Shown piece after piece: positions 1,003 through 56,944 of a DNA stretch of 64,000 nt. Location of the stretch: the NCBI GenBank assembly GCA_020148055.1, contig JAHCRF010000001.1, positions 5,378 to 69,377 of the forward strand. Reading direction: 5' to 3'. Numbering within the stretch: the first letter of the stretch is position 1; each line of letters opens with the position of its first letter. The stretch comes from Patescibacteria group bacterium. GTDB lineage: Bacteria; Patescibacteriota; Minisyncoccia; Minisyncoccales; JAHCRE01. The notes beneath the pieces were generated by a model. It saw only the letters and a program-made list of their open reading frames with translations, made no database searches and was not told the DNA's origin. The position numbers and the translations under genes are program-made.

Positions 1003-2145
1003 GATATTTTCAATAATTTTTTTCGAGTCTTCGATTAGTTCTTCACCGCTCATTTCCCTTGACCCCTTCCTTTTTTCTTCTGAGGGCTTCTTTTGTGTCG
1101 GGAGCTTTTTTTCTCTCATCGGCATCCTTTTCCAAGCAGCGATAAGATTTAGTAAGCTTCTCTCCAAGCCTTCAGCTCCTTCTACTCTAATATCAAGGAA
1201 ACTTCGACCGTCAATTGCCATCCTCCTCTGAATCAGATCTTTACTTAATTCTCTGAATTCTTTATTTAACTTTGTAGACCTTTTAATCGTTTCTTGAATA
1301 TCTTTCACTGATTTACCAGTTGCTTTAGCCATCATCTGAATAACTGAACCTATTGTTTCTTCTGCTCTCTGCTCGGCCTCGTAAGGTGCTGCTTCTGCCT
1401 CCAACCTTTCTTTATCTACTCTTGGTAAAGCTTTTTCCAATTCTTTAGGAAGCTTTATTTCCTTGACAATTAACCTTAGATCTTCTTCTCTGAAGCCCGC
1501 CTTTCGCAAAGTGCCATCCTCATCTTTAAAGATCCCTTCTGCTTCCTCTCTCAATTTTGATATATTTTCAGTGGCCTGTTTCCAGGTCATTTTCCCAAAA
1601 GCCACTCTAAGAGCTCCAACCACTGCCTCCTCAGTCCAATCCATTAGTTCTTTATCTTTAATGGGGACATGAGATTTCAAGATCTTGATAAGCCCTGTTT
1701 TTGTCCTAGGAAATCGTAAATAAGCTACCGAATCAACTTTAAGGACCTGAGTCCCATATTGTGTTTTTCCTCGGTATTTCTTTGCCTTTGAAATAATTGT
1801 TCTCTCAGGATACGTCAAGTTATACCACTTTGTAGGGTATATTTTTAAGTAGCATCCTGGCAAGAGCGGTACAAAGTAATAACCGCTCTTGCAAAATCCT
1901 ACTGGTTTTCCAAAGACCACTTTTATTGCTATCTCTGCCGGTCCAACGATTTTTATTGAACAAAGGAACCAAGTTGTCACAATTAGAATAGCTATCCCCG
2001 CAACAGTTATTGCAATAGAGAGGAGCTTTAAAAAAGCAGCCACTGAAAGAGCGATTATCAGTGTCGCTATCATCTTTATCAGCGTCCCTCTACTCCACCG
2101 TCTTTTCGCTTTTTCTTCTCTCTCAATTTTCTTTTTCTCTGCCAT
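988..2145 (-). CDS. SPFH/band-7 (stomatin/prohibitin-like) membrane protein
   Basis: N-terminal TM helices, then the SPFH-type start IVGPAEIAIKVVFGKP and a coiled-coil C-terminal half. 385 aa. Confidence 0.6.
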   Translation of the reverse strand: MAEKKKIEREEKAKRRWSRGTLIKMIATLIIALSVAAFLKLLSIAITVAGIAILIVTTWFLCSIKIVGPAEIAIKVVFGKPVGFCKSGYYFVPLLPGCYLKIYPTKWYNLTYPERTIISKAKKYRGKTQYGTQVLKVDSVAYLRFPRTKTGLIKILKSHVPIKDKELMDWTEEAVVGALRVAFGKMTWKQATENISKLREEAEGIFKDEDGTLRKAGFREEDLRLIVKEIKLPKELEKALPRVDKERLEAEAAPYEAEQRAEETIGSVIQMMAKATGKSVKDIQETIKRSTKLNKEFRELSKDLIQRRMAIDGRSFLDIRVEGAEGLERSLLNLIAAWKRMPMREKKLPTQKKPSEEKRKGSREMSGEELIEDSKKIIENIQKRG

Positions 2146-2370
2146 TTCTTTTTACCTTCATACATATTTAGTTTTTAAGGTTTCGATGTTTCTATTATAT
2201 TATATTAAAATATTTTTGTCAAGGGCTACCCTCACCTTACTACTCATTTCTTTTTTATGCTATAATTAATAAATTGAGTTTTTGAAAAGACTTCTACCTA
2301 AAATTATAACAAGATGGTAGAATATATTTAGAAAATCAAAAAATTAACTACACTTTAAGTTATTTATCAT

Positions 2371-2790
2371 ATGGAATTTACTGTTCCCCAATTCATTGAG
2401 GAGGAACCAAAAATAGTCGGGCCCCTCACTTTTAAACAGTTTATTTTCGTTGCCGTAGCTGGAGCTGCTTGTTTTTTTCTTTATTTTTTTATTGGCGAAA
2501 AAAATTTCGCTCTTTTTTTACTAATTACCATAATCTTAATGGGAGGATCCCTGGCTCTTTGCTTTTTGAAAATTAAAGGTTATAGCTTGCCCATGATCAT
2601 AAAAAATTTTTTCACCTATTCAATCTCTGGTAAAGTTTTCCTCTGGAAAAGGAAAATTGTGCCCCCTAAATTTAAAAAGGTTGAAAAATTTGAAAAAGCC
2701 GAGGTCGAAGAAGAAGCTACATTGAAAATGGCTAAAAAAAGTCATTTACAAAGATTATCAACCCAGGTGGAAACCAAAACAATAAAATAA
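2371..2790 (+). CDS. small two-TM membrane protein, candidate VirB3/PrgI-like T4SS component
   Basis: 139 aa with two adjacent hydrophobic helices, encoded directly upstream of the VirB4-like ATPase as in Gram-positive prgI-prgJ arrangements. The assignment is by context and topology only. Confidence 0.35.
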   Translation: MEFTVPQFIEEEPKIVGPLTFKQFIFVAVAGAACFFLYFFIGEKNFALFLLITIILMGGSLALCFLKIKGYSLPMIIKNFFTYSISGKVFLWKRKIVPPKFKKVEKFEKAEVEEEATLKMAKKSHLQRLSTQVETKTIK

Positions 2791-2796
2791 AAACCT

Positions 2797-3444
2797 ATGC
2801 CAAGGGCACCTACTCAACAATTTTTAGAAATTAAGCAAATAAGAGAAGGGGTGATTGTTCTGAGAGATAAAACCTTAAGAGGAATTTTGATGCTTTCTTC
2901 TTTAAATTTCGCCTTAAAAGCTGAGGAGGAGCAAACTGCTATTTTATATCAATTTCAGGAGTTTTTGAATTCTTTAGATTTTTCTTGCCAACTTCTTGTC
3001 CAAACCCGGAGATTAAATATTACCGGTTACTTAGATAAATTGAAGGATCTCGAAGAAAAACAGGAAAATGAACTCCTGAAAATTCAGACCAAAGGCTATC
3101 GTGAATTTGTGGCTGGGATGATAAAAGGAGGAACAATAATGACGAAAAGTTTTTTTGTTATTATTCCTTTTTATCCTTCTCCTTTAGAAATCCAAGAATT
3201 TGGCGGCAAAAAAAAGCTTCCCGGAGTACCAAAAACTCCAACTTTAACTGAAGAATCTTTTCAAAGATATAAAAGCCAACTCTGGCAGAGAATGGAATTT
3301 GTTGCCTTGGGATTAAGAAGGTGTGGTCTCCAGGCCATTCCTCTAATTACTCCTGAACTAATTGAGCTTTTCTGGAAATTCTATCATCCAAAAGAAGCAG
3401 AATTTGGTTATTACCCTGAAATTCCCCCAGAATTAGCCCAGTAG
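2797..3444 (+). CDS. VirB4/TrbE-family N-terminal domain, encoded as a separate ORF (split VirB4)
   Basis: The motif IKQIREGVIVLRDKTLRGILMLSSLNFALKAEEEQTAILYQFQEFLNSLDFSCQLLVQ matches the conserved N-terminus of Gram-positive VirB4 homologues. The ORF ends with TAG then TAA, 20 nt before the ATPase ORF. Confidence 0.55.
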   Translation: MPRAPTQQFLEIKQIREGVIVLRDKTLRGILMLSSLNFALKAEEEQTAILYQFQEFLNSLDFSCQLLVQTRRLNITGYLDKLKDLEEKQENELLKIQTKGYREFVAGMIKGGTIMTKSFFVIIPFYPSPLEIQEFGGKKKLPGVPKTPTLTEESFQRYKSQLWQRMEFVALGLRRCGLQAIPLITPELIELFWKFYHPKEAEFGYYPEIPPELAQ

Positions 3445-3466
3445 TAAGCTTACTCTTCTATTAAAT

Positions 3467-5275
3467 TTGCCAAAAAATATGAAAATTCCATTTTTAAAAA
3501 GAAAAAAAGAAATAGAAATTCCCAAGAAAATATTTGAAGCAGAAATCCTCAAAGTAACTGATATTATTGCCCCTTCTTCAATTGAAATTTCTCAGAATTA
3601 TCTAAAATTGGGAGAGAAATTTGCCAGAAGTTATTTTATTTTTTCTTATCCAAGATATTTAAGTGCTGCCTGGCTTTCTCCGGTTATAAATTTAGATATT
3701 CCTCTAGATATTTCCTTTTTTATCCACCCAATTGAAACTGGAACGGTTTTGAAACAATTAGTAAAAAGGGTGACTGAAGTTCAATCAGAAATTATGGAAA
3801 GAGAAGAAAAAGGTCTTGTTCGAGACCCAGTTTTAGAAACTGCTTTCCGGGATTTAGAAGAATTAAGAGACAAGCTTCAGACCGCTCGAGAAAAGATGTT
3901 TAAATTTGGCCTTTATCTTACTGTTTATGTTGATAAAGAAGAAGATTTTAGAGCTATTGAAACTACTCTCCGCTCAATCCTTGAAGCCAGACTAATTTAT
4001 ATAAAACCAGCTCTTTTCCAACAACACGAAGGATTTATCTCCAGTTCTCCTTATTGCTTGGATCGGCTCCTAATCCATACCCCAATGAATACTGAGCCCC
4101 TCTCTTCTATCTTTCCTTTTATCTCTTTTGACTTGAGCTCCAACGAAGGGATTTTATATGGGGTAAACCGTCATAATAATTCTCTAATTTTATTCGATAG
4201 ATTCAGTTTAGAGAATGCGAATGAGGTAGTTTTTGCCAAGGCCGGTAGTGGAAAATCATATGCTGTAAAATTGGAAGTTTTACGATCCTTAATGTTAAAT
4301 GTGGACGTGATAGTTATTGATCCCGAGAATGAATATATGTTTTTATCTGATGCCGTTGGTGGTTCTTTCTTTAAAATTTCTCTAACCTCTCCAAATCATA
4401 TTAACCCTTTTGAATTACCTCCCCCCAGAGAAGATGAAAAACCGGAAGATGTTCTAAGATCGAATACTATAAACTTGGTCGGTTTATTAAGGATTATGTT
4501 AGGGGGGTTAACTCCGGAAGAAGATGCTATTATTGACAGAGCCTTAACTGAAACTTATGCCGCCAAAGACATTACCCCTGAATCTGATCCCGCTCTCTGG
4601 AAAGAAAATCTTCCTCTGATGGAAGATTTAGAAACAGTCCTGGAAACTATGGAGGGAACTGAATCATTAGTGAGAAGGTTGCAGAAATTCACCAAAGGAG
4701 CCTACTCCTCGTTTTTCAACCAACCTTCAAATATCTCAATGGAAAACAACATGGTTATCTTCGGAATAAGAGATATGGAAGAAGAGTTAAGACCAATGGC
4801 CCTTTATATAATTTTGAGATATATTTGGAAGACAGTCAGAGCCACTCTTAAAAAAAGAATTTTGATTGTTGATGAGGCTTGGTGGTTAATGCAATCAGAA
4901 GACGGAGCTTCATTCCTCTATGGAGTTTGTAAGCGAGCAAGGAAATACTGGTTGGGGGTAACAACAATTACCCAGGATATCGGAGATTTTATGAAGTCAT
5001 CCTACGGTCAACCAATCATTACCAACTCTTCTTTACAACTTTTATTAAAGCAATCACCAGCCACAATCGACATCGTCAAAAAAACCTTTCTTTTAACTGA
5101 GCAAGAAAAATATATGTTGTTAGAAGCAGCAGTAGGTGAGGGGTTATTTTTCGCCGGGCAAAAACACGTCGCCATAAAAGTAGTTGCCTCTTATGCTGAA
5201 GACCAGATAATTACCACAGCCCCTGAAGAAGTTTTAAAAATAAGAAAAGCAAAAAAAGAGTTAGCTGAAGAATAA
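3467..5275 (+). CDS. VirB4/TrbE-like type IV secretion ATPase, C-terminal ATPase portion
   Basis: Walker A FAKAGSGKSYAV, Walker B ILIVDEAWWLM (the DEAW signature) and the C-terminal TTITQDIGDF motif. 602 aa; with the upstream 215-aa ORF this totals about 817 aa, typical of full-length VirB4. Confidence 0.75.
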   Translation: MPKNMKIPFLKRKKEIEIPKKIFEAEILKVTDIIAPSSIEISQNYLKLGEKFARSYFIFSYPRYLSAAWLSPVINLDIPLDISFFIHPIETGTVLKQLVKRVTEVQSEIMEREEKGLVRDPVLETAFRDLEELRDKLQTAREKMFKFGLYLTVYVDKEEDFRAIETTLRSILEARLIYIKPALFQQHEGFISSSPYCLDRLLIHTPMNTEPLSSIFPFISFDLSSNEGILYGVNRHNNSLILFDRFSLENANEVVFAKAGSGKSYAVKLEVLRSLMLNVDVIVIDPENEYMFLSDAVGGSFFKISLTSPNHINPFELPPPREDEKPEDVLRSNTINLVGLLRIMLGGLTPEEDAIIDRALTETYAAKDITPESDPALWKENLPLMEDLETVLETMEGTESLVRRLQKFTKGAYSSFFNQPSNISMENNMVIFGIRDMEEELRPMALYIILRYIWKTVRATLKKRILIVDEAWWLMQSEDGASFLYGVCKRARKYWLGVTTITQDIGDFMKSSYGQPIITNSSLQLLLKQSPATIDIVKKTFLLTEQEKYMLLEAAVGEGLFFAGQKHVAIKVVASYAEDQIITTAPEEVLKIRKAKKELAEE

Positions 5276-5360: not shown

Positions 5361-5822
5361 TTAAGGATAGGGTTTAATTATCACTCTTCTTTCTGGTTCT
5401 TGACCAATGCTTTCGGTGGTAACATCTTGACGATCAGCTATTTCCAAATGAATAATCCTTCTTTCATAAGCTGGCATCGGCGATAGAATCTTTTCTCTTT
5501 TTGTCAAAGCGACCTCATCAGCAACTGAATGAGCCGTTTCTTTTAGATATTCAATTTTTCTCTTTTTATAATCATTGATATCCAAATCGATAAAGAAAAT
5601 TTCTTCAATCTTCCTTCTCAAGATTGCCTTCAGAAGACGTTGGATCTCCAAGAGAGTCTGTCCTCCTTCCCCGATCAGAATCTGAGGTTTTTCCATTTTC
5701 AAATTTATAGATAAAGTTTTTTCTTTCTGAAATAAAGGTTTAATTTCAACATCAATTGTCATTTTTTTAAAAAATTCCTCAACAATTTTGTTAACTGTAT
5801 CTAAATTAGATTGAGTAAGCAT
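5361..5822 (-). CDS. jag: Jag/KhpB-like RNA-binding protein (KH + R3H)
   Basis: Contains a KH-like ILIGEGGQTLLEIQ segment and a C-terminal R3H-like region. Conserved position downstream of yidC. Confidence 0.65.
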   Translation of the reverse strand: MLTQSNLDTVNKIVEEFFKKMTIDVEIKPLFQKEKTLSINLKMEKPQILIGEGGQTLLEIQRLLKAILRRKIEEIFFIDLDINDYKKRKIEYLKETAHSVADEVALTKREKILSPMPAYERRIIHLEIADRQDVTTESIGQEPERRVIIKPYP

Positions 5823-7588: not shown

Positions 7589-8938
7589 ATGAATCACGAA
7601 GAACTCTGGCAGGCAGTCCTTGCCCAAATTCAATTAAATATTTCCCAAGCTAATTTTGCCACCTGGTTTAAGAACACCAGAATCCTTGGTAAAAAAGAAG
7701 AAAAGGTGGTAATCTCTGTTCCCAATTCTTTTGCCAAAGAGTGGCTCGAAAATAAATATAATAAGTTAATTTTCAAAATTTTACATAGTTTAGACGAAGG
7801 AATTAAAGGAGTAAGATATGAAATAGGTAAAACCGGCCTAAAGGTTTTTAAAAAATCTCCACTGCCTATTTCAGAAACCGAACAGCTTGAGTTTCCAGAA
7901 TTTAAAATTGATAAAGAAACCAATCTCAATCCTCGTTATGCTTTTGAAAATTTTGTAATAGGCCCTTTTAACGAACTCCCTCAAGCAGCTGCCTGGGCAG
8001 TGACAAAAAATCCTGGGTCTATCTACAATCCATTATTTATTTATGGAGGGGTTGGTCTGGGTAAAACCCATTTACTTCAAGCCATCGGTAATGAAATCGT
8101 TAAAAATTTTCCTAAGAAAAAGATAAGATATATTCCCTGTGAAAAATTCACCTCAGGAATCATAAACTCAATCAGAAATCATAGTATTGAAAGTTTCAAG
8201 TCAAAATATCGAGCAATTGACATTTTAATTATTGACGATGTCCAATTTCTGGCTGGGAAAGAAAAAACTCAGGAAGAGTTCTTTCACATCTTTAACACTT
8301 TATATGAAAGAGATAAACAGATAATCCTTTCTTCTGATCGATCGCCAAAAGCCATTCCAGCTTTGACCGAGAGATTGAGATCTCGTTTTGAAGGAGGAAT
8401 GATCGCTGATATATCTTTGCCTGACCTTGAAACAAGAATAGCTATTCTTAAAACTAAAGCCCAAGAAAAAAGAATCAATTTCCCCAGTGAAGTTTTTTCT
8501 TATATCGCCACAAAAATCCAAAAAAATATTAGGGAACTAGAAGGAGCTTTAAATAGATTAATAGCCTACCAGAAACTAAAAAAACAAGTTCCTGATGTTG
8601 AAACCACTAAAAACCTTTTAAAGAAGATAATCATTTCTCCAGTTAAAATAACCACTCCAAAAAAAATAATCCAGGGGGTAGCTGAGTTTTACGATCTCAA
8701 GGAAAAAGATCTTCAAAGCTCTTCTCGAAAAAAAGAAATCGTTAAACCCCGTCAGGTAGCAATGTATTTATTAAGAGAGATATTAAAATGTTCTTATCCT
8801 TTTATCGGTAGAAAATTTGGAGGGAGAGATCACACCACCGCTATCCATGCTTACGGAAAAATCCTTAAAGAGTTAGAAAAGGATGAAAATCTGAAAGAGG
8901 AAATCAACTTAATAAAACAGAGAATATCAAGTGTCTAA
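7589..8938 (+). CDS. dnaA: chromosomal replication initiator DnaA
   Basis: AAA+ Walker A GGVGLGKTHLL and a C-terminal DNA-binding domain. 449 aa. Confidence 0.95.
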   Translation: MNHEELWQAVLAQIQLNISQANFATWFKNTRILGKKEEKVVISVPNSFAKEWLENKYNKLIFKILHSLDEGIKGVRYEIGKTGLKVFKKSPLPISETEQLEFPEFKIDKETNLNPRYAFENFVIGPFNELPQAAAWAVTKNPGSIYNPLFIYGGVGLGKTHLLQAIGNEIVKNFPKKKIRYIPCEKFTSGIINSIRNHSIESFKSKYRAIDILIIDDVQFLAGKEKTQEEFFHIFNTLYERDKQIILSSDRSPKAIPALTERLRSRFEGGMIADISLPDLETRIAILKTKAQEKRINFPSEVFSYIATKIQKNIRELEGALNRLIAYQKLKKQVPDVETTKNLLKKIIISPVKITTPKKIIQGVAEFYDLKEKDLQSSSRKKEIVKPRQVAMYLLREILKCSYPFIGRKFGGRDHTTAIHAYGKILKELEKDENLKEEINLIKQRISSV

Positions 8939-48678: not shown

Positions 48679-49116
48679 ATGAAAAAAGAATATTTCAAAT
48701 TTGTTTCAGCTTGTCATTTATTTCTCATAAATGGAAATAAAATTTTATTGTTAAGGCGATTTAATACTGGTTGGGAAGATGGCAAATATAGTGTGGTCGC
48801 TGGTCATTTAGATGGCAATGAGACAGTAAAGGCCGCTATGATAAGAGAGGCCAAAGAAGAAGTGGGAATAGATATTAACGAAGACGATTTAGAGTTTTTT
48901 CAAGTAATGCATCGAAAATCAGAAGAAGAGCGTATTGATTTTTTCTTTCTAGTCAAGAAATGGTCTGGCAATATTGAGATTAAAGAGCCTCATAAATGTG
49001 ATCAGTTGGATTGGTTTGGTTTGGATAAACTCCCAGGAAATATGGTAGCTTATGTGAAAAGAGCTATCGAGAATTATAAAAATCAGATAAATTTTGATCA
49101 ATTCGGCTGGGATTAA
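48679..49116 (+). CDS. NUDIX hydrolase
   Basis: Nudix box GHLDGNETVKAAMIREAKEEVGI. Confidence 0.7.
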   Translation: MKKEYFKFVSACHLFLINGNKILLLRRFNTGWEDGKYSVVAGHLDGNETVKAAMIREAKEEVGIDINEDDLEFFQVMHRKSEEERIDFFFLVKKWSGNIEIKEPHKCDQLDWFGLDKLPGNMVAYVKRAIENYKNQINFDQFGWD

Positions 49117-49535: not shown

Positions 49536-51032
49536 TCAATGGTTGAAAAGAAAGACCAAAATTTAGCATCCCGTCCTCCGGTAGTAGTAGTTTTAGGACA
49601 TGTTGATTCAGGGAAAACCTCAATTTTGGATTATATCAGAAAAACTCAGGTGGCTAAAAAAGAGGCCGGCGGGATTACTCAGCATATTGGAGCTTATCAG
49701 ATTGAAAAGGAAGGAAAAGAAATTACCTTTATTGATACTCCTGGCCATGAGGCTTTTTCAGCGATGAGAGCAAGAGGGGCAAAAGTTGCCGATATTGCTA
49801 TTTTGGTGATTGATGGAGTTGAGGGAGTAAAAGCCCAAACCAAAGAAGCCATCTCATATATAAAAAAGGTCCAGATTCCAATGGTTGTGGCTATAAATAA
49901 AATTGATAAAACAGCGGCTGATTCAGAAAGGGTTAAAAGAGAACTTTCAAAACAGAATATTTTAGTTGAGTCAATGGGAGGGAAAGTTCCTTCAGTTGGG
50001 GTTTCAGCAAAAACCGGGAGAGGGATTGAAAATCTCTTGGAATTAATTTTATTGGTGGCTGAAATGGAGAATTTTAAAGGTGATATCTCAAAATCAGCCG
50101 AGGGAGTGGTGATCGAATCATATTTAGATAGTTTGCGAGGACCAACCGCTACTTTACTTTTAAGAGACGGAATTTTAAGATCGGGTGATATTGTTGGAAC
50201 TTCTTCAACTTTTGGGAAAATTAGAACTTTGGAAAATTTTCAAGGGAAACTAATCAAGACAGCCCAACCCTCAATGCCAGTTATTTTGCTTGGTTTTGAG
50301 AATGTTCCCCAAGTTGGAGAAAAATTTAAGGTTTTCGGTGACGCTCAGCAAGCTAAAGATTATCTTCAGAAACCAGAAAGAAAAGGAGTTGGAAAAGTGT
50401 TTTTTATTGAACCTGGTAAAAGAGTTCTAAATTTGGTTTTAAAAACCGATGTTTTGGGATCAATTGAGGCAATTGAAGAAGTTTTGAAAGGTCTTCCCCA
50501 AGAAAAAGTCATTTTAAGAATTTTAAAAACTGAAGCCGGAGATATTAATGAATCTGATGTTAAGTTGGCAAAGTCGGCCAAGGCAAAAGTCTTGGGTTTT
50601 CGAGTAAAAATAAGTCCAATTGCTCAGAGTTTAGCTGAAAAAGAAAAAATTAAAATTATGACTTTTGAGGTTATTTATGATTTTGTTCAGGCTGTTCGGG
50701 AGTTAATGGAAAAAATTTTAGAACCGGAGACAATCAGAACAGACTTAGGGAAAGTTAAAACTTTAATAATTTTTCGAACTGAAAGAAATCGTCAGATTAT
50801 TGGCGGTAGAGTTACTACAGGGGAGGTTAAAAAGGGAGTTTTAATCGAGATTTTTCGAGGTGAAGAGAAAATTGGCCAGGGAAAACTGATTAATCTCCAA
50901 ATAAATAAAAAAGATGTTGAAAAGGCGGGCATGGGGGATGAGTGTGGAATTTTATACGAGGGCAATATAAAAATTGAAGAAGGTGATATTTTAGTAATTT
51001 ACACTCAGGAGAGGAGAAAGGGGGAGTTATAG
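49536..51032 (+). CDS. infB: translation initiation factor IF-2 (short form lacking the N-terminal region)
   Basis: G-domain VVVVLGHVDSGKTSILD ... DTPGHEAF ... NKID, then domain II and C1/C2. The ATG at 49536 is preferred. An upstream TTG at 49488 is possible. Confidence 0.8.
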   Translation, partial: SMVEKKDQNLASRPPVVVVLGHVDSGKTSILDYIRKTQVAKKEAGGITQHIGAYQIEKEGKEITFIDTPGHEAFSAMRARGAKVADIAILVIDGVEGVKAQTKEAISYIKKVQIPMVVAINKIDKTAADSERVKRELSKQNILVESMGGKVPSVGVSAKTGRGIENLLELILLVAEMENFKGDISKSAEGVVIESYLDSLRGPTATLLLRDGILRSGDIVGTSSTFGKIRTLENFQGKLIKTAQPSMPVILLGFENVPQVGEKFKVFGDAQQAKDYLQKPERKGVGKVFFIEPGKRVLNLVLKTDVLGSIEAIEEVLKGLPQEKVILRILKTEAGDINESDVKLAKSAKAKVLGFRVKISPIAQSLAEKEKIKIMTFEVIYDFVQAVRELMEKILEPETIRTDLGKVKTLIIFRTERNRQIIGGRVTTGEVKKGVLIEIFRGEEKIGQGKLINLQINKKDVEKAGMGDECGILYEGNIKIEEGDILVIYTQERRKGEL

Positions 51033-51035
51033 AAA

Positions 51036-51377
51036 ATGTCCAAACGTATTCAACGCGTCAACCAACTTATTAAAAAAGAGCTTGGAAAAATTCTTCTTCG
51101 AGAGGGAGATTTTTCAAAAGAGACCTTAGTGACTCTTACCAGAGTTGAAACTTCGATTGATTTAAGAGAAGCTAAAGTCTGGATTTCTGTTTTTCCTAGA
51201 AATCAAACCACTAAAGTTATTCAGATTTTAAATCGAAAAATTTATGATTTTCAGCAAAAAATTAACAAAATCCTCAAGATGAGGCCGGTCCCCAAAATAA
51301 AGTTTTTAATTGAAACAAGAGCTAAAGAAGCAGCCAGAATTGAAGAACTCTTAGAAAAAATAAAAAAATCTGGTTGA
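51036..51377 (+). CDS. rbfA: ribosome-binding factor A
   Basis: MSKRIQRVNQLIKKELGKIL RbfA start. Conserved infB-rbfA order. 113 aa. Confidence 0.85.
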   Translation: MSKRIQRVNQLIKKELGKILLREGDFSKETLVTLTRVETSIDLREAKVWISVFPRNQTTKVIQILNRKIYDFQQKINKILKMRPVPKIKFLIETRAKEAARIEELLEKIKKSG

Positions 51378-51408
51378 AAAAATGTTTGAAACTGCTAAGA
51401 TAATTAGT

Positions 51409-51481
51409 GGCCAGGTAGCCAAGTAGCTAAGGCGGCAGTCTGCAAAACTGCTATACGTGGGTGCAATTCCCGCCCTGGCCT
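51409..51481 (+). tRNA. tRNA-Cys (anticodon GCA) with atypical T-loop
   Basis: Acceptor GGCCAGG/CCTGGCC, anticodon stem GCAGT/ACTGC, loop CUGCAAA, discriminator U. The T-loop reads TGCAATT, with G instead of the usual U at position 55. Confidence 0.65.
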
Positions 51482-51490
51482 CAAAATTTT

Positions 51491-51575
51491 GCCCGGGTGG
51501 AGGAATGGGTAGACTCGAGAGACTTAAAATCTCTTGGATGAATAATCCGTGTGGGTTCGAGTCCCACCCCGGGCA
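51491..51575 (+). tRNA. tRNA-Leu (anticodon UAA), type II
   Basis: Acceptor GCCCGGG/CCCGGGC, anticodon stem AGAGA/TCTCT, loop CUUAAAA, long variable arm, T-arm GTGGG-TTCGAGT-CCCAC. Confidence 0.8.
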
Positions 51576-51638
51576 TAAATAAAAAACTCGGCGTAGTTGC
51601 GCCGGGCCTTTTATATAAGGAGATTTAATCTCCGAAGC

Positions 51639-52163
51639 TTAACCTTCCAACATTTCAATATAGGCTCTTTTTGATCCAAAATTTAAGGCTTGCCAATAAG
51701 AAGGGAACCAGATATCAACATGGTAATACCCTTTTTTCCAATGCATTCTATCTTCAACCACAAAAACTTTATCTCCATAGATTTCCGGTATCCTGATTTT
51801 TGTTCCAAAGGGAAGCAGATTATTTGCCACAACTCCCTCTCTTACCAGAGTACCAGCTGCAGTGATATAGGGATTATCGTCGGTCTCAAAAGGCGAAGAG
51901 GAATAAGCAGTCACAATTACTTTTATTTTTCGGACCACCTGGACAGGATTAGAATAATTAGAAGCTGACAAAAGGCTATTTCCTTGGACAATAGGCAATC
52001 TATTTCCTAAAATCTCTTCAATAGAAAACTCAGCTAAATTAGCCTCTATTTTTTGAATTTTAGCCTCAAAAATAGACCTTCCACCAATGTAAAATCCGAT
52101 GACTATCAGAATAATTAAGATATTTTTGCCCCAAAAATTAGGGCATTTTGATTTCTTACTCAT
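51639..52163 (-). CDS. 3D-domain (MltA/YuiC-like) cell-wall-binding protein
   Basis: N-terminal TM. C-terminal GTKIRIPEIYGDKVFVVEDRMHWKKGYYHVDIWF resembles the 3D domain with conserved Asp residues. Confidence 0.5.
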   Translation of the reverse strand: MSKKSKCPNFWGKNILIILIVIGFYIGGRSIFEAKIQKIEANLAEFSIEEILGNRLPIVQGNSLLSASNYSNPVQVVRKIKVIVTAYSSSPFETDDNPYITAAGTLVREGVVANNLLPFGTKIRIPEIYGDKVFVVEDRMHWKKGYYHVDIWFPSYWQALNFGSKRAYIEMLEG

Positions 52164-52334
52164 TTTTAAAACCCCTTAAAGGGGTTGTACCATTTTAGCT
52201 TATCCACAAGGGCTGTCAAGAGTAAACCAAAAACCCGAGAAAAACTCTCGGGCGGCGGAAATAAAGAAGAGACAAAAACGGGACCCAATCTCTTAATGAA
52301 AAAGGAGCTTAGCTCCTTTTATAAATTTGCACTG

Positions 52335-52406
52335 AGCGGGTGAAGGGAGTCGAACCCTCTTCTTAATCTTGGCAAGATCATATAATAACCGTTATACTAC
52401 ACCCGC
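52335..52406 (-). tRNA. tRNA-Gly (anticodon GCC)
   Basis: Acceptor GCGGGTG/CACCCGC, anticodon stem TGATC/GATTA, loop UUGCCAA, T-arm GAGGG-TTCGACT-CCCTT. Confidence 0.8.
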
Positions 52407-52412
52407 TTTTTG

Positions 52413-52487
52413 TGCCGCGGACCAGACTTGCACTGGTGAAACCTCGTCTTTTTCAGAGACGCGCTCTACTACCTGAGCTACCGCGGC
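52413..52487 (-). tRNA. tRNA-Phe (anticodon GAA) with atypical T-loop and 7-nt variable loop
   Basis: Acceptor GCCGCGG/CCGCGGC, D-arm GCTC-AGGTAGTA-GAGC, anticodon stem CGTCT/AGACG, loop CUGAAAA. The T-arm is ACCAG-TGCAAGT-CTGGT, with G at position 55. Confidence 0.65.
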
Positions 52488-52490
52488 TGA

Positions 52491-52901
52491 TTATTCGGGA
52501 TATACTTTCCCTTTTAGAAGATTTTTAAGAGGCAAAAATAAAGGTTTTGGTAAACTATTCCAGTCAAACCAGTTGATTTTTGACATTTCTTCATTACAAA
52601 TTTTAGATTTGCTGGATTTCCAATCAGAGATTACCCATATTGTAATGTAATGCTTTTTCTCTTTTTTGAAAAGATCCTCGGTGAAACCCACTACTTCTAA
52701 GTTTTTAATTTCAATTCCTATTTCTTCCTTTACTTCTCTTTTAGCGCAATTGGTAACACTTTCTCCAAAATCAATGTGTCCTCCAGGCGGAGCCCAAGTT
52801 TCTGCTCCATGAGAACCCCTTCTTTTCATTAACAGTATCTTTTTCTTTTTATTTATAATAACTCCAACCCCGACTCTAACTTTTTTATTCTTTTCTTTCA
52901 T
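52491..52901 (-). CDS. NUDIX hydrolase
   Basis: Nudix box GGHIDFGESVTNCAKREVKEEIGIE. The start is set at MKEKNKK (ATG 52901) because the upstream part of the supplied ORF overlaps tRNA-Val. Confidence 0.7.
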   Translation of the reverse strand: MKEKNKKVRVGVGVIINKKKKILLMKRRGSHGAETWAPPGGHIDFGESVTNCAKREVKEEIGIEIKNLEVVGFTEDLFKKEKKHYITIWVISDWKSSKSKICNEEMSKINWFDWNSLPKPLFLPLKNLLKGKVYPE

Positions 52902-52912
52902 TGTTTTGAAGA

Positions 52913-52986
52913 TGGGCGGCATAGGACTCGAACCCATAACCTCCGCGATGTAAGCGCGACGCTCTAACCATTGAGCTAGCCGCCCC
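52913..52986 (-). tRNA. tRNA-Val (anticodon UAC)
   Basis: Acceptor GGGCGGC/GCCGCCC, anticodon stem TCGCG/CGCGG, loop CUUACAU, T-arm ATGGG-TTCGAGT-CCTAT. Confidence 0.85.
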
Positions 52987-52995
52987 TTTTCTTGC

Positions 52996-53082
52996 TGGTG
53001 CCCAGGGCGGGACTCGAACCCGCAAGGGGTTACCCCCACTACCACCTCAAGGTAGCGAGTTTTCCAATTTCTCCACCTGGGC
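52996..53082 (-). tRNA. tRNA-Leu (anticodon GAG), type II, CCA encoded
   Basis: Acceptor GCCCAGG/CCTGGGC, anticodon stem CTACC/GGTAG, loop UUGAGGU, long variable arm, T-arm CGGG-TTCGAGT-CCCG, then ACCA. Confidence 0.8.
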
Positions 53083-53787
53083 GAACTGACTTTGTTCGTT
53101 ATAATTTATATTTATTTGGAAAATTTTTCGAGCTTTTTCATATTTTCGTTGTAAAAAAGGAATATTATCTGAATAAAACATTTTATTAAACAGAATAACG
53201 CTCTCTTCCTTTGCATATCTTAAGAGATAAGTATTGTTACCCGCAGACCCAATACTTCCGTTTAATCTACAGAGATTCTTAATCTTTTCTTGTAGCCATT
53301 TAAGAAAATTAAGACTTGCTGAGGAAAACGCAATGTAAAACATAAAACTACTATGCCATCGAGAATCCCAAAACGAGTAAATTGTTCCATCGCCATCAAA
53401 ACACCCTCTTAGAAAATCAAAGAAATATTTATTCGGAATTTCAAGCTTAGAAATTGCTTTTGATTTATTAGGCATTAATCCAATTTTCAGAAGCCATTTA
53501 TAAAGTTTGACATTACTAAATTGAATGCGGGGATATCTTTTATCTGTAGATCCGCTTGTTTTTGTCCCAATCTCCACATCGATTAAATTCATACATTTCT
53601 TAAAAGTTTTCACTAATTGGATATCATTAGACGTAAACTCAAGATGTCTACCATCTTTAGATAAATTTCCATCGGTAGTTAATAATCCAATCGCATAAGC
53701 GAATTCAGGAGTCAATTTTATCTTATAATTTTTATTTTTCTGACTTCCTCTCATTTTTATTTTTTTATTATTTTTGATTCTAACCAA
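53047..53787 (-). CDS. free-standing double-motif LAGLIDADG homing endonuclease
   Basis: First motif FAYAIGLLTTDGNL; second motif FLRGCFDGDGTI. About 246 aa with the usual two-half architecture. The last 36 nt of the ORF overlap the 5' part of tRNA-Leu(GAG). Confidence 0.7.
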   Translation of the reverse strand: MVRIKNNKKIKMRGSQKNKNYKIKLTPEFAYAIGLLTTDGNLSKDGRHLEFTSNDIQLVKTFKKCMNLIDVEIGTKTSGSTDKRYPRIQFSNVKLYKWLLKIGLMPNKSKAISKLEIPNKYFFDFLRGCFDGDGTIYSFWDSRWHSSFMFYIAFSSASLNFLKWLQEKIKNLCRLNGSIGSAGNNTYLLRYAKEESVILFNKMFYSDNIPFLQRKYEKARKIFQININYNEQSQFAQVEKLENSLP

Positions 53788-53806
53788 TTTTGTTCCGTCC
53801 GCCCAT

Positions 53807-54217
53807 TTATTTAATTTCCTTAATTTCTTCGGATTTCTGCCCTAATTTCTCTTCGGTCGTAGCTTTAACAAATTCTTTTCTTTTCAATTTTGCCTTCTTT
53901 CCTTTAACTTTTCTTAAATAGTAAAGTTTTGCCCTTCTGACTTTTCCTCTCTTTGTAATTTCTATTTTTTCAATAGTAGGGGAGTGAAGAGGAAAAATTC
54001 TTTCTACTCCGATTCCAGAAATTATCTTTCTGACCGTGATTGTAGCTCCAATTCCTTTACCATGTTTCCTAGCTAAAACTACTCCTTCAAAAACTTGAAT
54101 TCTTTCTTTACCTTTTTCTCTAATTTTTTGGTAAACCTTAACGGTATCACCCGATCTAATATCCGGTAGGTCTTTTTTTAGAAAAGGCCCTAAGAATTTC
54201 TCGATTTTAGTCACCAT
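53807..54217 (-). CDS. rplS: 50S ribosomal protein L19
   Basis: [45 protein letters not shown] is the L19 pattern. 136 aa. Confidence 0.9.
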
Positions 54218-54914
54218 AATTTAATTTTTCTAATATTTTTTTAAAATTTTCTGGCAAATCTGATTTAAACTCTTTTTCTTTTCCGTCTGGCAATTTTATT
54301 TTTAGATAATTAGCATGTAAAAATTGGCGATTTAATCCTTTAGGCGTTGGTTGATTTTTAAATCCATAAATTTTATCTCCAGCAATTGGACAGGAAAGAT
54401 AGGCTAGATGACATCTGATTTGGTGGCGCCTTCCAGTTTTCGGAATCACCTCTATTAATGTATATTTTTTAAACCTCTTTAAAACTTTGAATCCTGTAAT
54501 AGCCTTTCTTTTTTCTCTAGCTTTTGGTTCAAAAGGTAGATAGACTCTTTGCTTTTTTCTATTTTTTGGAGATCTCCCAATTAAAGTTTCAATTTTCCCA
54601 AAATCTTCTTTTAAGTTTCCAACTACCAAGGCCAAATATTTTTTGATTACTTTTCTTTCTTTAAATTGTCTTTGTAAAAAATCTAAAGTTTTATTATTTT
54701 TAGCAACCAAAAGAATTCCAGAAGTATCCTTGTCTAATCGATGGACAATTCCGTATCTCGGGGCTTTACCGATTTTTTTTAAATCAGGATAATTTTCTAA
54801 AAGATAATCTATTAAAGTTTTTTCCTTTATTCTTCTTTCAGGAAAAACAATTATTCTAGCTGGCTTATCAATTACTAAAAGGCCTTCATCTTCATAAATA
54901 ACCTTTAATTCCAT
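54207..54914 (-). CDS. RluA-family pseudouridine synthase
   Basis: Catalytic motif [16 protein letters not shown]. 235 aa. Confidence 0.8.
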
Positions 54915-54915
54915 G

Positions 54916-54989
54916 TGGGCGCGACAGGACTTGAACCTGTGAACCTCCTCAATGTCAGTGAGGCGCTCTAACCACTGAGCTACGCGCCC
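54916..54989 (-). tRNA. tRNA-Val (anticodon GAC)
   Basis: Acceptor GGGCGCG/CGCGCCC, anticodon stem CCTCA/TGAGG, loop CUGACAU, T-arm ACAGG-TTCAAGT-CCTGT. Confidence 0.8.
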
Positions 54990-54996
54990 CTAATGA

Positions 54997-55070
54997 TGCG
55001 CGTGGTAGGACTCGAACCTACGAACCCCGACTTTATAAGAGTCGTGCTCTAACCACTGAGCTACACGCGC
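54997..55070 (-). tRNA. tRNA-Ile (anticodon UAU)
   Basis: Acceptor GCGCGTG/CACGCGC, perfect anticodon stem CGACT/AGTCG with loop CUUAUAA, T-arm GTAGG-TTCGAGT-CCTAC. Confidence 0.75.
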
Positions 55071-56944
55071 TTGATTTTTACTTTTAGAGAAGGAATTTTG
55101 AAAATTTTTTTTGATTTTTTAGAGATCTTCTTCTCTTTTAGTAAGTTTTCAAACTCCCTTTTTTCAATTGTTTCTTTCTTGATTAAGGTTTTAGCAATTT
55201 TCTCAAGTAATCTTCTTTTTTGAATCAAAATCTTTTTTGCCTGATTTTCAGCATTTTTAATAAATTTGGTTACCTCTTTATCAATTTGAATTGCCATTTT
55301 CTCAGAATAGTCTCTTCTTTCAGAAATTTCTTTTCCCAAGAAAACTAATTCTTCTTTTTTACCAAAAGAAATTGGTCCCAGAGCTGACATTCCATATTCT
55401 TTGACTAATTTTCTGGCCAATTCGGAAGCCTTTTTTAAGTCATTAGTAGCGCCGGTAGTAATCTCGCCAAACTTTATTTTTTCAGCAACATAACCCCCAA
55501 GTAATGTCGCCATTTCAGCCAAAAATTGAGATTTTGTTTTAATTTTCCTTTCTTCGGTGGGCATCTTTAGGGTGTAACCGGCCGCTAACCCTCGGGCAAC
55601 AATCGAAATTTTTCTAACTTCTTCTGTTCCAGAAAGAAAAGTAGAAACTAAGGCATGACCAGCTTCATGGAAGGCGGCAATTTCCTTTTCTTTTTCAGAT
55701 AAAATGTGGCTTTTTCTTTCCGGACCCAATAAAACTTTCTCAATTGATTCTAATATTTCTTCCTGGTAGATTTGAGCTTTATTTCTTCTAGCAGTCAAAA
55801 TTGCCGCTTCATTAACCAAATTAGCTAAATCAGCTCCTGAAAATCCTGGTGTCCTCTCAGCAATTTCTCTTAGGTTAATATTTGAAGTCAAAGGTTTTCC
55901 CTGACAATGAATTTTTAAAATTTCTACTCGGTCATTAACATCTGGCAAATCTAAAACCACTCTTCGATCAAACCTCCCCGGCCTTAAAAGAGCGGGATCC
56001 AAAATATCAGGGCGATTGGTCGCTGATATTACGATTACATGGGTATCTCTTTCAAATCCATCCATTTCTACTAAAATTTGATTTAGTGTTTGTTCTCTCT
56101 CGTCATGCCCTCCGCCAATACCTGCTCCCCGATGACGACCAATAGCATCAAGTTCATCAATGAAAATTATTGCCGGAGCATTTTTTTTAGCTGTTAAAAA
56201 TAAGTCTCTTACCCTGGCTGATCCCACTCCGACAAACATCTCCACAAATTCCGATCCAGAAATATGATAAAAAGGAACATTAGCCTCACCGGCCACCGCT
56301 CTCGCTAATAAAGTTTTTCCGGTTCCCGGTGCTCCCATTACTAAAACTCCTCTAGGAATTCTCGCCCCTATCTGTAGATATTTTTTTGGATTTTTTAGAA
56401 AATCAACAATCTCCTTTAACTCTTCTTTTGCTTCTTTTAGGCCGGCCACATCCTTGAAAGTAATTTTCTCTTTTGGATGACCTTCGGCTCCAAAAAGTCT
56501 TGCTTTAGCTTTGGTGAAATTGAATACTTGGGTTGCTCCGGTTCTGGCCTGGCGAAAAATAAGCCAAAAAAAGAAGATTAAGAATATAAAAGGAAGGAAA
56601 TATAAAATTGGGCCCAACCAGCTTAAAATTTCTCGTTTTTCTTCTGCTGTTATTTCTATTTTTTGCAGTTTTTCTTGACTCAATCCATAGTTTATTAAAG
56701 ATTCAGAAAGGGCAATCTCTGGCTCTTTTCTTGATTTAGCTTTTGTTCCATCTTGGTAAATTATTTCCAGTTCATTATTGGAAACAGTAATTCTTTTGAT
56801 CTTTTCCTGTTCGATCTCCTTAACCAATTGAGTTAAAGAGAGCACCTTTTCTCTCTCCACTGGTTGAAAAAATAAGGCAAAAATAGCTGAAATAGCTAAG
56901 AAAATGAGGAGAATAAAGAGGAAATTTTTGAATAGAAATTTCAT
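55061..56944 (-). CDS. ftsH: ATP-dependent zinc metalloprotease FtsH
   Basis: Two N-terminal TM helices; AAA+ Walker A GAPGTGKT and an SRH region; zinc motif HEAGHAL. 627 aa. The 3' end overlaps tRNA-Ile by about 10 nt. Confidence 0.9.

Follow-up and report, generated by a model that had tools for sequence, protein, structure and literature searches.

A LAGLIDADG homing endonuclease gene abuts tRNA-Leu(GAG) in a 64,000-nucleotide (nt) stretch of contig JAHCRF010000001.1 from a Patescibacteria group bacterium (positions 5,378 to 69,377; this whole stretch is called the window below). Together with the tRNA gene that follows it, this open reading frame (ORF) probably forms a single intron-less homing cassette that invades a native tRNA-Leu gene at the anticodon loop. 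The linkage of the ORF to tRNA-Leu is fixed, and is far tighter than a single sequence could reveal. The features of the window at the centre of the analysis are the following.

53047 to 53754, minus strand: LAGLIDADG homing endonuclease gene, predicted two-domain monomer of 235 amino acids (aa) from the conserved ATG (Pfam, PHROG and AlphaFold2 (AF2)).
52996 to 53082, minus strand: complete class II tRNA-Leu(GAG), the working copy (ARAGORN; Rfam tRNA model, 52.9 bits).
53047 to 53082, minus strand: 36-nt overlap of ORF and tRNA, in which the last 11 codons of the ORF (AQVEKLENSLP) and its TGA stop are read from the 5' part of the tRNA.
53807 to 54217, minus strand: rplS, encoding ribosomal protein L19 (Pfam Ribosomal_L19, 146 bits), directly upstream of the ORF.

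The genomic context was surveyed in LAGLIDADG-containing loci fetched with a protein probe and the window and read with tblastn and ARAGORN, of which 88 were tabulated. A tRNA-Leu on the same strand directly follows the ORF in 85 of the 88; its anticodon is nearly always GAG, with CAG and AAG found once each. The distance from ORF to tRNA in these 85 loci ranges from -204 to +26 nt. The stop codon lies within the tRNA in 58 of them, the commonest overlaps being 36 nt (25 loci) and 15 nt (18 loci), while the remaining 27 show a gap of 0-26 nt and none a longer one. The overlap of ORF and tRNA is real and recurrent, and is no gene-calling artefact. The usual upstream neighbour is rplS, which is absent from that position in ten loci where the tRNA-Leu is still retained; therefore, the conserved unit is the ORF plus tRNA-Leu and not rplS plus the ORF. 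The protein has 2679 detectable homologs, and the best 120 of these, which are 52-100% identical, come from Patescibacteria wherever the source names an organism. Counting one genome per GTDB species, relatives are present in at least 435 genomes, representing many Parcubacteria-type candidate phyla together with Berkelbacteria and others.

An earlier reading of the window from its letters alone (the first-pass annotation) had placed the ORF between rplS and a tRNA cluster, outside any intron or intein, with its last 36 nt overlapping tRNA-Leu(GAG). The overlap is confirmed by the ARAGORN and Rfam tRNA calls, and the position holds on both sides, with rplS upstream and tRNA-Val, a NUDIX gene, tRNA-Phe and tRNA-Gly downstream. 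The placement outside an intron was likewise borne out, since an Rfam search of the flanks for an intron core returned none: even at E<=1, positions 50000-56000 contain no match to a group I or group II intron. The ORF is a stand-alone gene, with no host protein fused to it and no intein. Its TGA stop coincides with U33-G34-A35 of the tRNA-Leu(GAG) anticodon loop.

To avoid selection bias, a metagenome collection was probed with L19 (rplS) rather than with the LAGLIDADG protein. Nineteen of the loci obtained in this way are empty, with tRNA-Leu(GAG/AAG) located 4-200 nt past the end of the rplS match and nothing between them, and about 12 of the 19 run on into tRNA-Val and usually Phe-Gly, as in the window. 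The closest relative of the window that was found (L088; the surveyed loci carry L numbers), with 78% identity in both L19 and FtsH, is among the empty loci. The filled loci in the same set are only L091, L093 and probably the truncated L135, i.e., two or three versus 19. The ORF is a presence/absence polymorphism at a fixed site, and rplS is the left flank of that site. A housekeeping role, which early contexts with FtsH-RluD-rplS-ORF synteny had brought under consideration, was rejected once the rplS-probed scan showed mostly empty sites. Conservation as a housekeeping gene in all relatives, which the first-pass annotation had named as the outcome that would speak against its proposal, was not found, the ORF being missing from the 19 rplS-probed loci. 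No strain-level polymorphism was seen within the window's own species, for which exact-match look-ups with L19 and the LAGLIDADG protein gave only two contigs, both of them filled. In the empty locus L088 (5360-5430), the rplS frame enters the 5' end of tRNA-Leu and has its TGA stop within GCCCAGGTGA; therefore, rplS and the tRNA adjoin each other directly in the absence of a cassette as well.

Most filled loci contain, ahead of the ORF start, the string TTGGTAKACGC-N7-YTTGAGG, which corresponds to the part of tRNA-Leu that extends from its D loop to its anticodon loop. An entire 5' half is present in several loci; many relics are devoid of the acceptor and D stems. A profile built for nhmmer from empty-site tRNAs only gave partial matches to tRNA positions 1 to 36-39 in seven LAGLIDADG-probed loci, 12-80 nt upstream of the ATG, and one further 5'-partial match in L040, at the ORF start; it also detects the relics of L091 and L093, which were found independently through rplS. 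The same profile revealed no 3'-half relic downstream of the working tRNA, and no partial tRNA-Leu match was present between rplS and tRNA-Leu in any empty locus. With an ungapped position weight matrix (PWM) derived from empty-site tRNAs, 21 of 83 upstream windows exceeded the 99th percentile of the controls, the expectation being 0.8, and 37 of 83 exceeded the 95th percentile. In one alignment (A5), eight loci are collinear with native tRNA-Leu as far as CTTGAG(G), after which L091, L025, L001 and L042 change to a common leader, GATCTTTnAAAATnTG-ATAnAAT...TAATG. From the relics and this collinearity it follows that the architecture is a tRNA-Leu 5' half (to about position 37), the ORF, and a complete tRNA-Leu; the 5'-half relics place the element inside a former tRNA-Leu gene and not merely beside one. 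The proximal part of the relic is alike across loci and its distal acceptor part is variable, a sequence pattern compatible with that expected of co-conversion tracts. The candidate relic of the window is the following.

53776 to 53804, minus strand: possible eroded relic of a native tRNA-Leu 5' half, GGGCGGACGGAACAAAATTGGTTAGAATC, in the 52-nt spacer between rplS and the ATG.

This putative relic begins 3 nt past the rplS stop codon, and aligns with the clear relic of L001 (the closest filled relative, 79% protein identity) and with the GGGCGAG-type tRNA-Leu of empty loci.

The end of the relic, at the anticodon loop, coincides with the classical position of a tRNA intron, and group I introns that carry endonucleases are known from bacterial tRNA genes (PMC3984707). 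The ORF might on these grounds be intron-encoded, with a group I or archaeal-type intron splitting tRNA-Leu(GAG) at 37/38 and the upstream half serving as the true 5' exon. We regard this as extremely improbable. A complete and well-scoring tRNA-Leu, with a 5' half of its own, is located downstream of the ORF in 85 loci, many relics have no acceptor or D stem, and in the five of eight full-relic loci whose acceptor stems disagree (see below) the relic would not pair with the 3' strand of the working tRNA. In addition to the null result in the window, no intron ribozyme reached the Rfam gathering score in five other loci, and the spacers (0-80 nt from relic to ATG, at most 26 nt from ORF to tRNA) are too small for a ribozyme core. 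A group I or group II intron and a split tRNA had also been entertained as candidates, and were ruled out by the Rfam nulls, the complete downstream tRNA and the frequent lack of acceptor stems in the relics.

Relic and working tRNA are often of different types. Their acceptor stems mismatch in five of the eight full-relic loci, for example in L025 (relic GCCCAGG, working tRNA GCGCGGG) and L001 (GGGCGAG vs GCCCAGG), and in six of the eight the relic acceptor is the allele of the nearest empty locus. Working-tRNA similarity follows that of the LAGLIDADG protein weakly and significantly (Mantel r 0.19, reached by 0/999 permutations), and does not track L19 (r 0.04; 157/999 permutations). Judged from these comparisons, the working tRNA appears to be foreign in several loci. 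In the host clade nearest to the window, two LAGLIDADG lineages that share about 55% identity coexist with empty sites. Across loci L008-L167, the acceptor stems of tRNA-Leu(GAG) are of the types GCGCGGG, GCCCAGG, GGGCGAG, GCGGACG and GCCCGGG, with no match to L19 relatedness; types as sharply different as these are unusual for a single-copy essential tRNA, and are consistent with allele replacement.

The homing cassette that we favour would operate as follows. The free-standing, monomeric and probably active endonuclease would cut a tRNA-Leu(GAG) gene that lacks the cassette, in or close to the anticodon loop, and double-strand-break repair would then copy the cassette from the filled allele, i.e., intron-less homing, with co-conversion of the flanks. 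The native 5' half, to CTTGAG(G), would be stranded upstream as a relic, and the ORF with a complete replacement tRNA-Leu would supplant the rest of the native gene. Since the replacement tRNA-Leu is complete, the essential tRNA would stay functional without a self-splicing intron. The ORF is packed on its tRNA so tightly that in most loci the tRNA contains the stop codon. In many lineages the TTGGTA of the relic or the TTGAGG of the anticodon loop might provide the -35 box of an ORF promoter, and a second promoter in the ORF 3' end could drive the tRNA. Of this scheme, the arrangement of the genes, the difference in occupancy at one site, the relics and their mismatch with the working tRNA are observed directly, and DNA cleavage, its target site, the route of repair and the use of the promoters are inferred.

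The properties of the predicted protein are in line with such a role. An in-frame TTG start at 53787 lengthens the ORF to 246 aa (53047-53787, minus strand), the form described by the first-pass annotation, and the ORF call and the motif coordinates verify that it contains both of the motifs named there. The ATG at 53754 is the start in homologs and in the NCBI annotation, and yields the 235-aa form with the N-terminus MRGSQKNKNY.

53668 to 53694, minus strand: first LAGLIDADG motif, AIGLLTTDG, whose Asp is D28 of the 235-aa form.
53386 to 53406, minus strand: second LAGLIDADG motif, GCFDGDG, whose Asp is D122 of the 235-aa form.

In 64 homologs, D28 is invariant and aligns with the motif-1 Asp of I-Tsp061I; D120, G121, D122 and G123 are also invariant, motif 2 aligning with motif 2 of the same enzyme, as are a number of basic or polar positions. 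In the window the ORF has its full length and carries every invariant residue of the family, and five or more relatives share 73-81% identity with it and contain no frameshifts. The profile search suggested in the first-pass annotation supports the assignment, Pfam LAGLIDADG_3 matching in two stretches with 31.6 bits against a cut-off of 22.5, and the fold is supported by AF2 and Foldseek. PHROG 4645 ('endonuclease') scores 118 bits with the window protein. The AF2 model, based on the 64 homologs, has a predicted local distance difference test (pLDDT) value of 89.6 and a predicted template modelling score (pTM) of 0.85. It consists of tandem alpha-beta-beta-alpha-beta-beta-alpha domains arranged as a pseudo-dimer, with helices and strands in the expected order; the C-terminal nine residues (227-235), which are encoded within the tRNA, are modelled as disordered (pLDDT <50). 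The top PDB match of the model in Foldseek is the archaeal intron enzyme I-Tsp061I (E value 4e-11), which is also the best solved relative by sequence, followed by WhiA in second place, an intein endonuclease domain, bI3 maturase, I-AniI and I-DmoI. A Foldseek probability of 1.00 was obtained for I-Tsp061I, I-DmoI, I-AniI and I-SceI. Going by motifs, invariant residues and predicted fold, the enzyme of the window looks intact.

That WhiA and the bI3 maturase rank high among the structural matches would also fit a domesticated LAGLIDADG protein, that is, an ancient fixed insertion now serving the host. The protein could then be a WhiA-like or I-TevI-like autorepressor acting through the relic on the promoter of the ORF and tRNA-Leu, or an RNA chaperone of the tRNA-Leu precursor, and the empty sites would be losses caused by recombination between the relic and the 5' half of the tRNA. 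Like WhiA, the product is a bacterial, chromosomally encoded, free-standing protein of the LAGLIDADG fold. WhiA has no catalytic acidic residues and carries a C-terminal helix-turn-helix (HTH) domain, whereas here both catalytic Asp residues are invariant, the 235-aa protein has no extra HTH domain, and the Pfam LAGLIDADG_WhiA model reaches 16.5 bits, below its cut-off of 23.2. Moreover, WhiA is widely conserved, and the ORF is patchy: it is missing from most of the rplS/tRNA-Leu loci sampled without bias, the closest relative included. The different allele types of relic and working tRNA in five of eight loci imply repeated imports. In favour of domestication, the string TTGGTAKACGC-N7-YTTGAGG is conserved beyond what is expected of a decaying pseudogene and overlaps promoter-like hexamers.

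The loss of start codons in two loci is a further point against a protein that serves the host. Compared with the near-identical L006, L010 has 4 nt changes in the ORF, all of them non-synonymous, and one of these converts the ATG to ATA; in L008, ACG occupies the start position of the ORF. Read from the sequence, these changes point to decay after fixation. The two near-identical loci L006 and L010 are 99-100% identical over the 3' part of FtsH, RluD, rplS, the LAGLIDADG gene and tRNA-Leu (L006 about 1700-4850). On either side of that tract the identity is only 87-97%, and L010 carries an insertion of 1.57 kb directly behind tRNA-Phe. The pair forms a recombination mosaic that ends, on its right, shortly past the cassette; this is compatible with co-conversion without being specific to it.

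Several observations weigh against an active homing cassette, and some of them favour domestication. The 80 loci analysed were the best matches to the query, so that the sample is biased toward intact copies. The relic of the window is not significant (PWM score -9.8, with the same outcome in pairwise tests), and the relic is mostly gone in the window's own clade, the MRGSQKNKNY lineage. The mean pairwise identity of the protein (55%) equals that of L19 and is above that of RluD (46%), and the protein co-diverges in part with the host genes, the Mantel r being 0.35 with L19 and 0.53 with RluD, where L19 and RluD themselves give 0.62; this co-divergence is significant. Pairs with near-identical protein and divergent host genes were sought and none was found, so that no recent transfer between hosts was seen. 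Co-divergence with the host and the lack of near-identical copies in distant hosts together indicate that, at the scale sampled, inheritance has been mostly vertical. Losses could explain the patchiness and the many empty sites, because the relic and the 5' half of the tRNA are direct repeats between which recombination is possible. Finally, a column-by-column comparison of 81 filled with 19 empty tRNAs revealed no clear separating position (best p=0.005 over 94 columns); the idea of an immune allele of the working tRNA was dropped on this result, and the homing reading therefore leaves the escape of the donor tRNA-Leu from cutting unexplained. The missing allele difference is an absence of support for donor immunity rather than a disproof of it. 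With the evidence on both sides taken together, we consider domestication unlikely, and the intron-less homing cassette remains the reading that we prefer. The first-pass annotation had offered two readings, an intron-less homing element and a domesticated maturase; the former is favoured by the Asp residues, the missing intron core, the empty sites and the relics, and the latter is weakened.

Signals for expression were found on both sides of the ORF. In some relatives the relic overlaps strong sigma-70-like promoters, TTGGCA-N18-TATAAT in L061 and TTGTCA-N18-TATAAT in L026 (both 11/12), and in a third class the TTGAGG of the anticodon loop is located 17 nt upstream of TAnnAT, as read by eye from the alignment (a generic scan missed it in L001). 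A second promoter-like site, TTGAAA-N17-TATAAT, is found within the 3' end of the ORF, mostly 16-25 nt before the tRNA; a score of >=10/12 is reached there in 19% of loci, compared with 0/320 control windows inside ORFs. The corresponding site of the window is weaker.

53103 to 53131, minus strand: weak promoter-like site TCGAAA-N17-TAAATT (8/12), 20 nt upstream of the tRNA, where relatives have TTGAAA-N17-TATAAT.

The generic scan found no strong promoter beyond chance upstream of the window ORF. Both promoter signals being weak in the window, the ORF is probably co-transcribed with rplS. RNase P cleavage at the 5' end of the tRNA would strip the stop codon from the ORF and leave a non-stop mRNA; non-stop regulation of read-through transcripts is thus possible, and is less favoured because, in many relatives, the tRNA has a promoter of its own within the 3' end of the ORF.

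The same signals bear on whether the gene is an inert hitch-hiker, once mobile and no longer cutting or moving, which would be kept only since its deletion endangers the essential tRNA-Leu next to it, the tRNA promoter being located within the 3' end of the ORF. The promoter-like site embedded there in relatives, the eroded relic of the window and the missing strong promoter upstream of its ORF are all in keeping with this idea, and the sequence changes of L010 and L008 could reflect decay. Nevertheless, the window ORF is full length, with all invariant residues and the frameshift-free relatives mentioned above, and such conservation needs selection on the protein. We therefore hold an inert passenger to be quite improbable. 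Within the homing interpretation, the cassette of the window looks, from the state of its ORF and relic, intact but old.

Downstream of the working tRNA, the flank of the insertion site in the window is occupied by a compact block of genes.

52334 to 52985, minus strand: downstream flank of tRNA-Leu(GAG), whole block.
52913 to 52985, minus strand: tRNA-Val(TAC).
52491 to 52910, minus strand: NUDIX hydrolase gene between tRNA-Val(TAC) and tRNA-Phe(GAA).
52412 to 52487, minus strand: tRNA-Phe(GAA).
52334 to 52406, minus strand: tRNA-Gly(GCC).

The tRNA order Leu-Val-Phe-Gly is repeated in most rplS-linked loci. Two NUDIX genes had been noticed near the ORF, and both are real: the one in this block (52491-52910, minus strand) and a second (48679-49116, plus strand), which begins 4 nt past tRNA-Ser(CGA). 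A NUDIX gene is also found between tRNA-Val(TAC) and tRNA-Phe(GAA) in L092, the position of the gene at 52491-52910 in the window. An ORF of 174 aa (51639-52163, minus strand), located between tRNA-Leu(UAA) and tRNA-Gly(GCC), has no Pfam match at E<=1, and the gene calls of the same-species contig (L168, L170) include it as well. The FtsH of the window (55061-56944, 627 aa) is intein-free; in some relatives FtsH is split by an intein with a LAGLIDADG_3 domain (L001:1-931, with a product of 1073 aa; L073:1690-4857), and this intein is a further presence/absence mobile element of the same neighbourhood.

Related genes adjoin other tRNAs. In L092, a paralog with 41% identity (7906-8616, plus strand) is located between the NUDIX gene and tRNA-Phe(GAA) (8607-8679), and its TAG stop lies inside the 5' end of tRNA-Phe; inspection of the sequence upstream of this paralog gave no convincing relic. 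A distant LAGLIDADG subfamily (82-115 bits against the family hidden Markov model) is tied to the tRNA-Cys/tRNA-Leu(UAA) pair. Four of its copies start 0-6 nt past the 3' end of tRNA-Leu(UAA), and another is wedged between the two tRNAs.

L052, 7682 to 8482, minus strand: tRNA-Leu(UAA)-linked copy.
L054, 8490 to 9260, minus strand: tRNA-Leu(UAA)-linked copy.
L035, 5833 to 6618, minus strand: tRNA-Leu(UAA)-linked copy.
L027, 10468 to 11379, plus strand: tRNA-Leu(UAA)-linked copy.
L042, 7980 to 8630, minus strand: copy between tRNA-Cys and tRNA-Leu(UAA).

Some ORFs of this subfamily are followed by short GGGCAC-like strings, which might be relics of 3' ends. These arrangements suggest that LAGLIDADG genes of the Candidate Phyla Radiation (CPR) are associated generally with tRNA genes.

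Intron-less homing is an established pathway (PMC3984707). SegB of phage T4 is a free-standing GIY-YIG homing endonuclease encoded in the phage tRNA cluster, its recognition site includes a conserved tRNA motif, and on homing segB and the tRNA genes next to it are transferred jointly, displacing the markers of the recipient (PMC2330249). Being a free-standing endonuclease gene among tRNA genes, SegB is the closest functional analogue of the locus described here. The two differ in that the present enzyme is of the LAGLIDADG type and its gene resides in a cellular chromosome, whereas SegB homes during phage co-infection; activity has been demonstrated for SegB and would be expected here, and neither a half-tRNA relic nor an ORF/tRNA overlap has been described for SegB. 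LAGLIDADG genes are known in CPR bacteria within rRNA insertions (PMC11270868; PMC8172020). The rRNA-insertion and group I intron LAGLIDADGs of CPR bacteria (PMC11270868) share with the present gene the host phylum, the enzyme family and a highly conserved stable-RNA gene as the likely target, and the archaeal rRNA-intron enzymes I-Tsp061I and I-DmoI share its two-domain monomer fold. The rRNA-insertion enzymes are encoded inside rRNA genes and their insertions are removed from the RNA, while here the proposed target is a tRNA gene, there is no intron, and a duplicated replacement gene would preserve the function. Neither tRNA-linked nor free-standing copies are mentioned in the searchable literature on CPR LAGLIDADG rRNA insertions, and the text of PMC11270868 speaks neither of tRNA nor of free-standing copies. 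Group I introns have been found in tRNA-Leu(UAA) of cyanobacteria, and I-Ssp6803I is associated with a group I intron of tRNA-fMet (cited in PMC3984707). Both I-Ssp6803I, a PD-(D/E)XK enzyme, and the cyanobacterial tRNA-Leu(UAA) introns represent intron-borne, self-splicing arrangements, in contrast to the present locus, which has no ribozyme.

A parallel for the replacement of a target segment comes from organelles. Mobile endonuclease ORFs of fungal mitochondria (e.g., in Allomyces atp6) carry a duplicated end of the gene that they invade. As proposed here, an essential gene is invaded without an intron, a replacement segment is brought in, and the native segment is left as a pseudogene relic. 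The fungal cases concern protein-coding organelle genes in which the 3' end is replaced and the ORF is fused in frame; in the present case a bacterial tRNA gene is involved, its 5' half is stranded, and the whole tRNA is apparently replaced. Both the enzyme family and homing itself are thus familiar, and what appears to be undescribed is an element that invades a bacterial tRNA gene without an intron, supplies a replacement tRNA and strands the native 5' half.

It is possible, and we propose it only tentatively, that Patescibacteria host an undescribed class of intron-less homing element, directed at tRNA genes, which consists of a LAGLIDADG gene and a replacement copy of its target tRNA, which invades at the anticodon loop, and for which the stranded 5' half is reused as a promoter. 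The paralog families that abut tRNA-Phe(GAA) and tRNA-Leu(UAA) suggest a general strategy. Homing endonuclease genes are not known to persist in essential RNA genes outside self-splicing introns; the present locus suggests that there is a third way to occupy a stable-RNA gene, namely to carry a spare copy of the target. If this is true, tRNA genes would join the known targets of CPR LAGLIDADG elements, and such cassettes could cause essential tRNA genes of the phylum to be replaced horizontally and their alleles to turn over, which would explain why its tRNA-Leu(GAG) alleles do not track host phylogeny. The locus would also provide a natural case of promoter capture from a tRNA relic. Lastly, the family would represent a set of compact monomeric meganucleases, spread over at least 435 species genomes, whose likely targets, the anticodon regions of tRNA genes, could be guessed.

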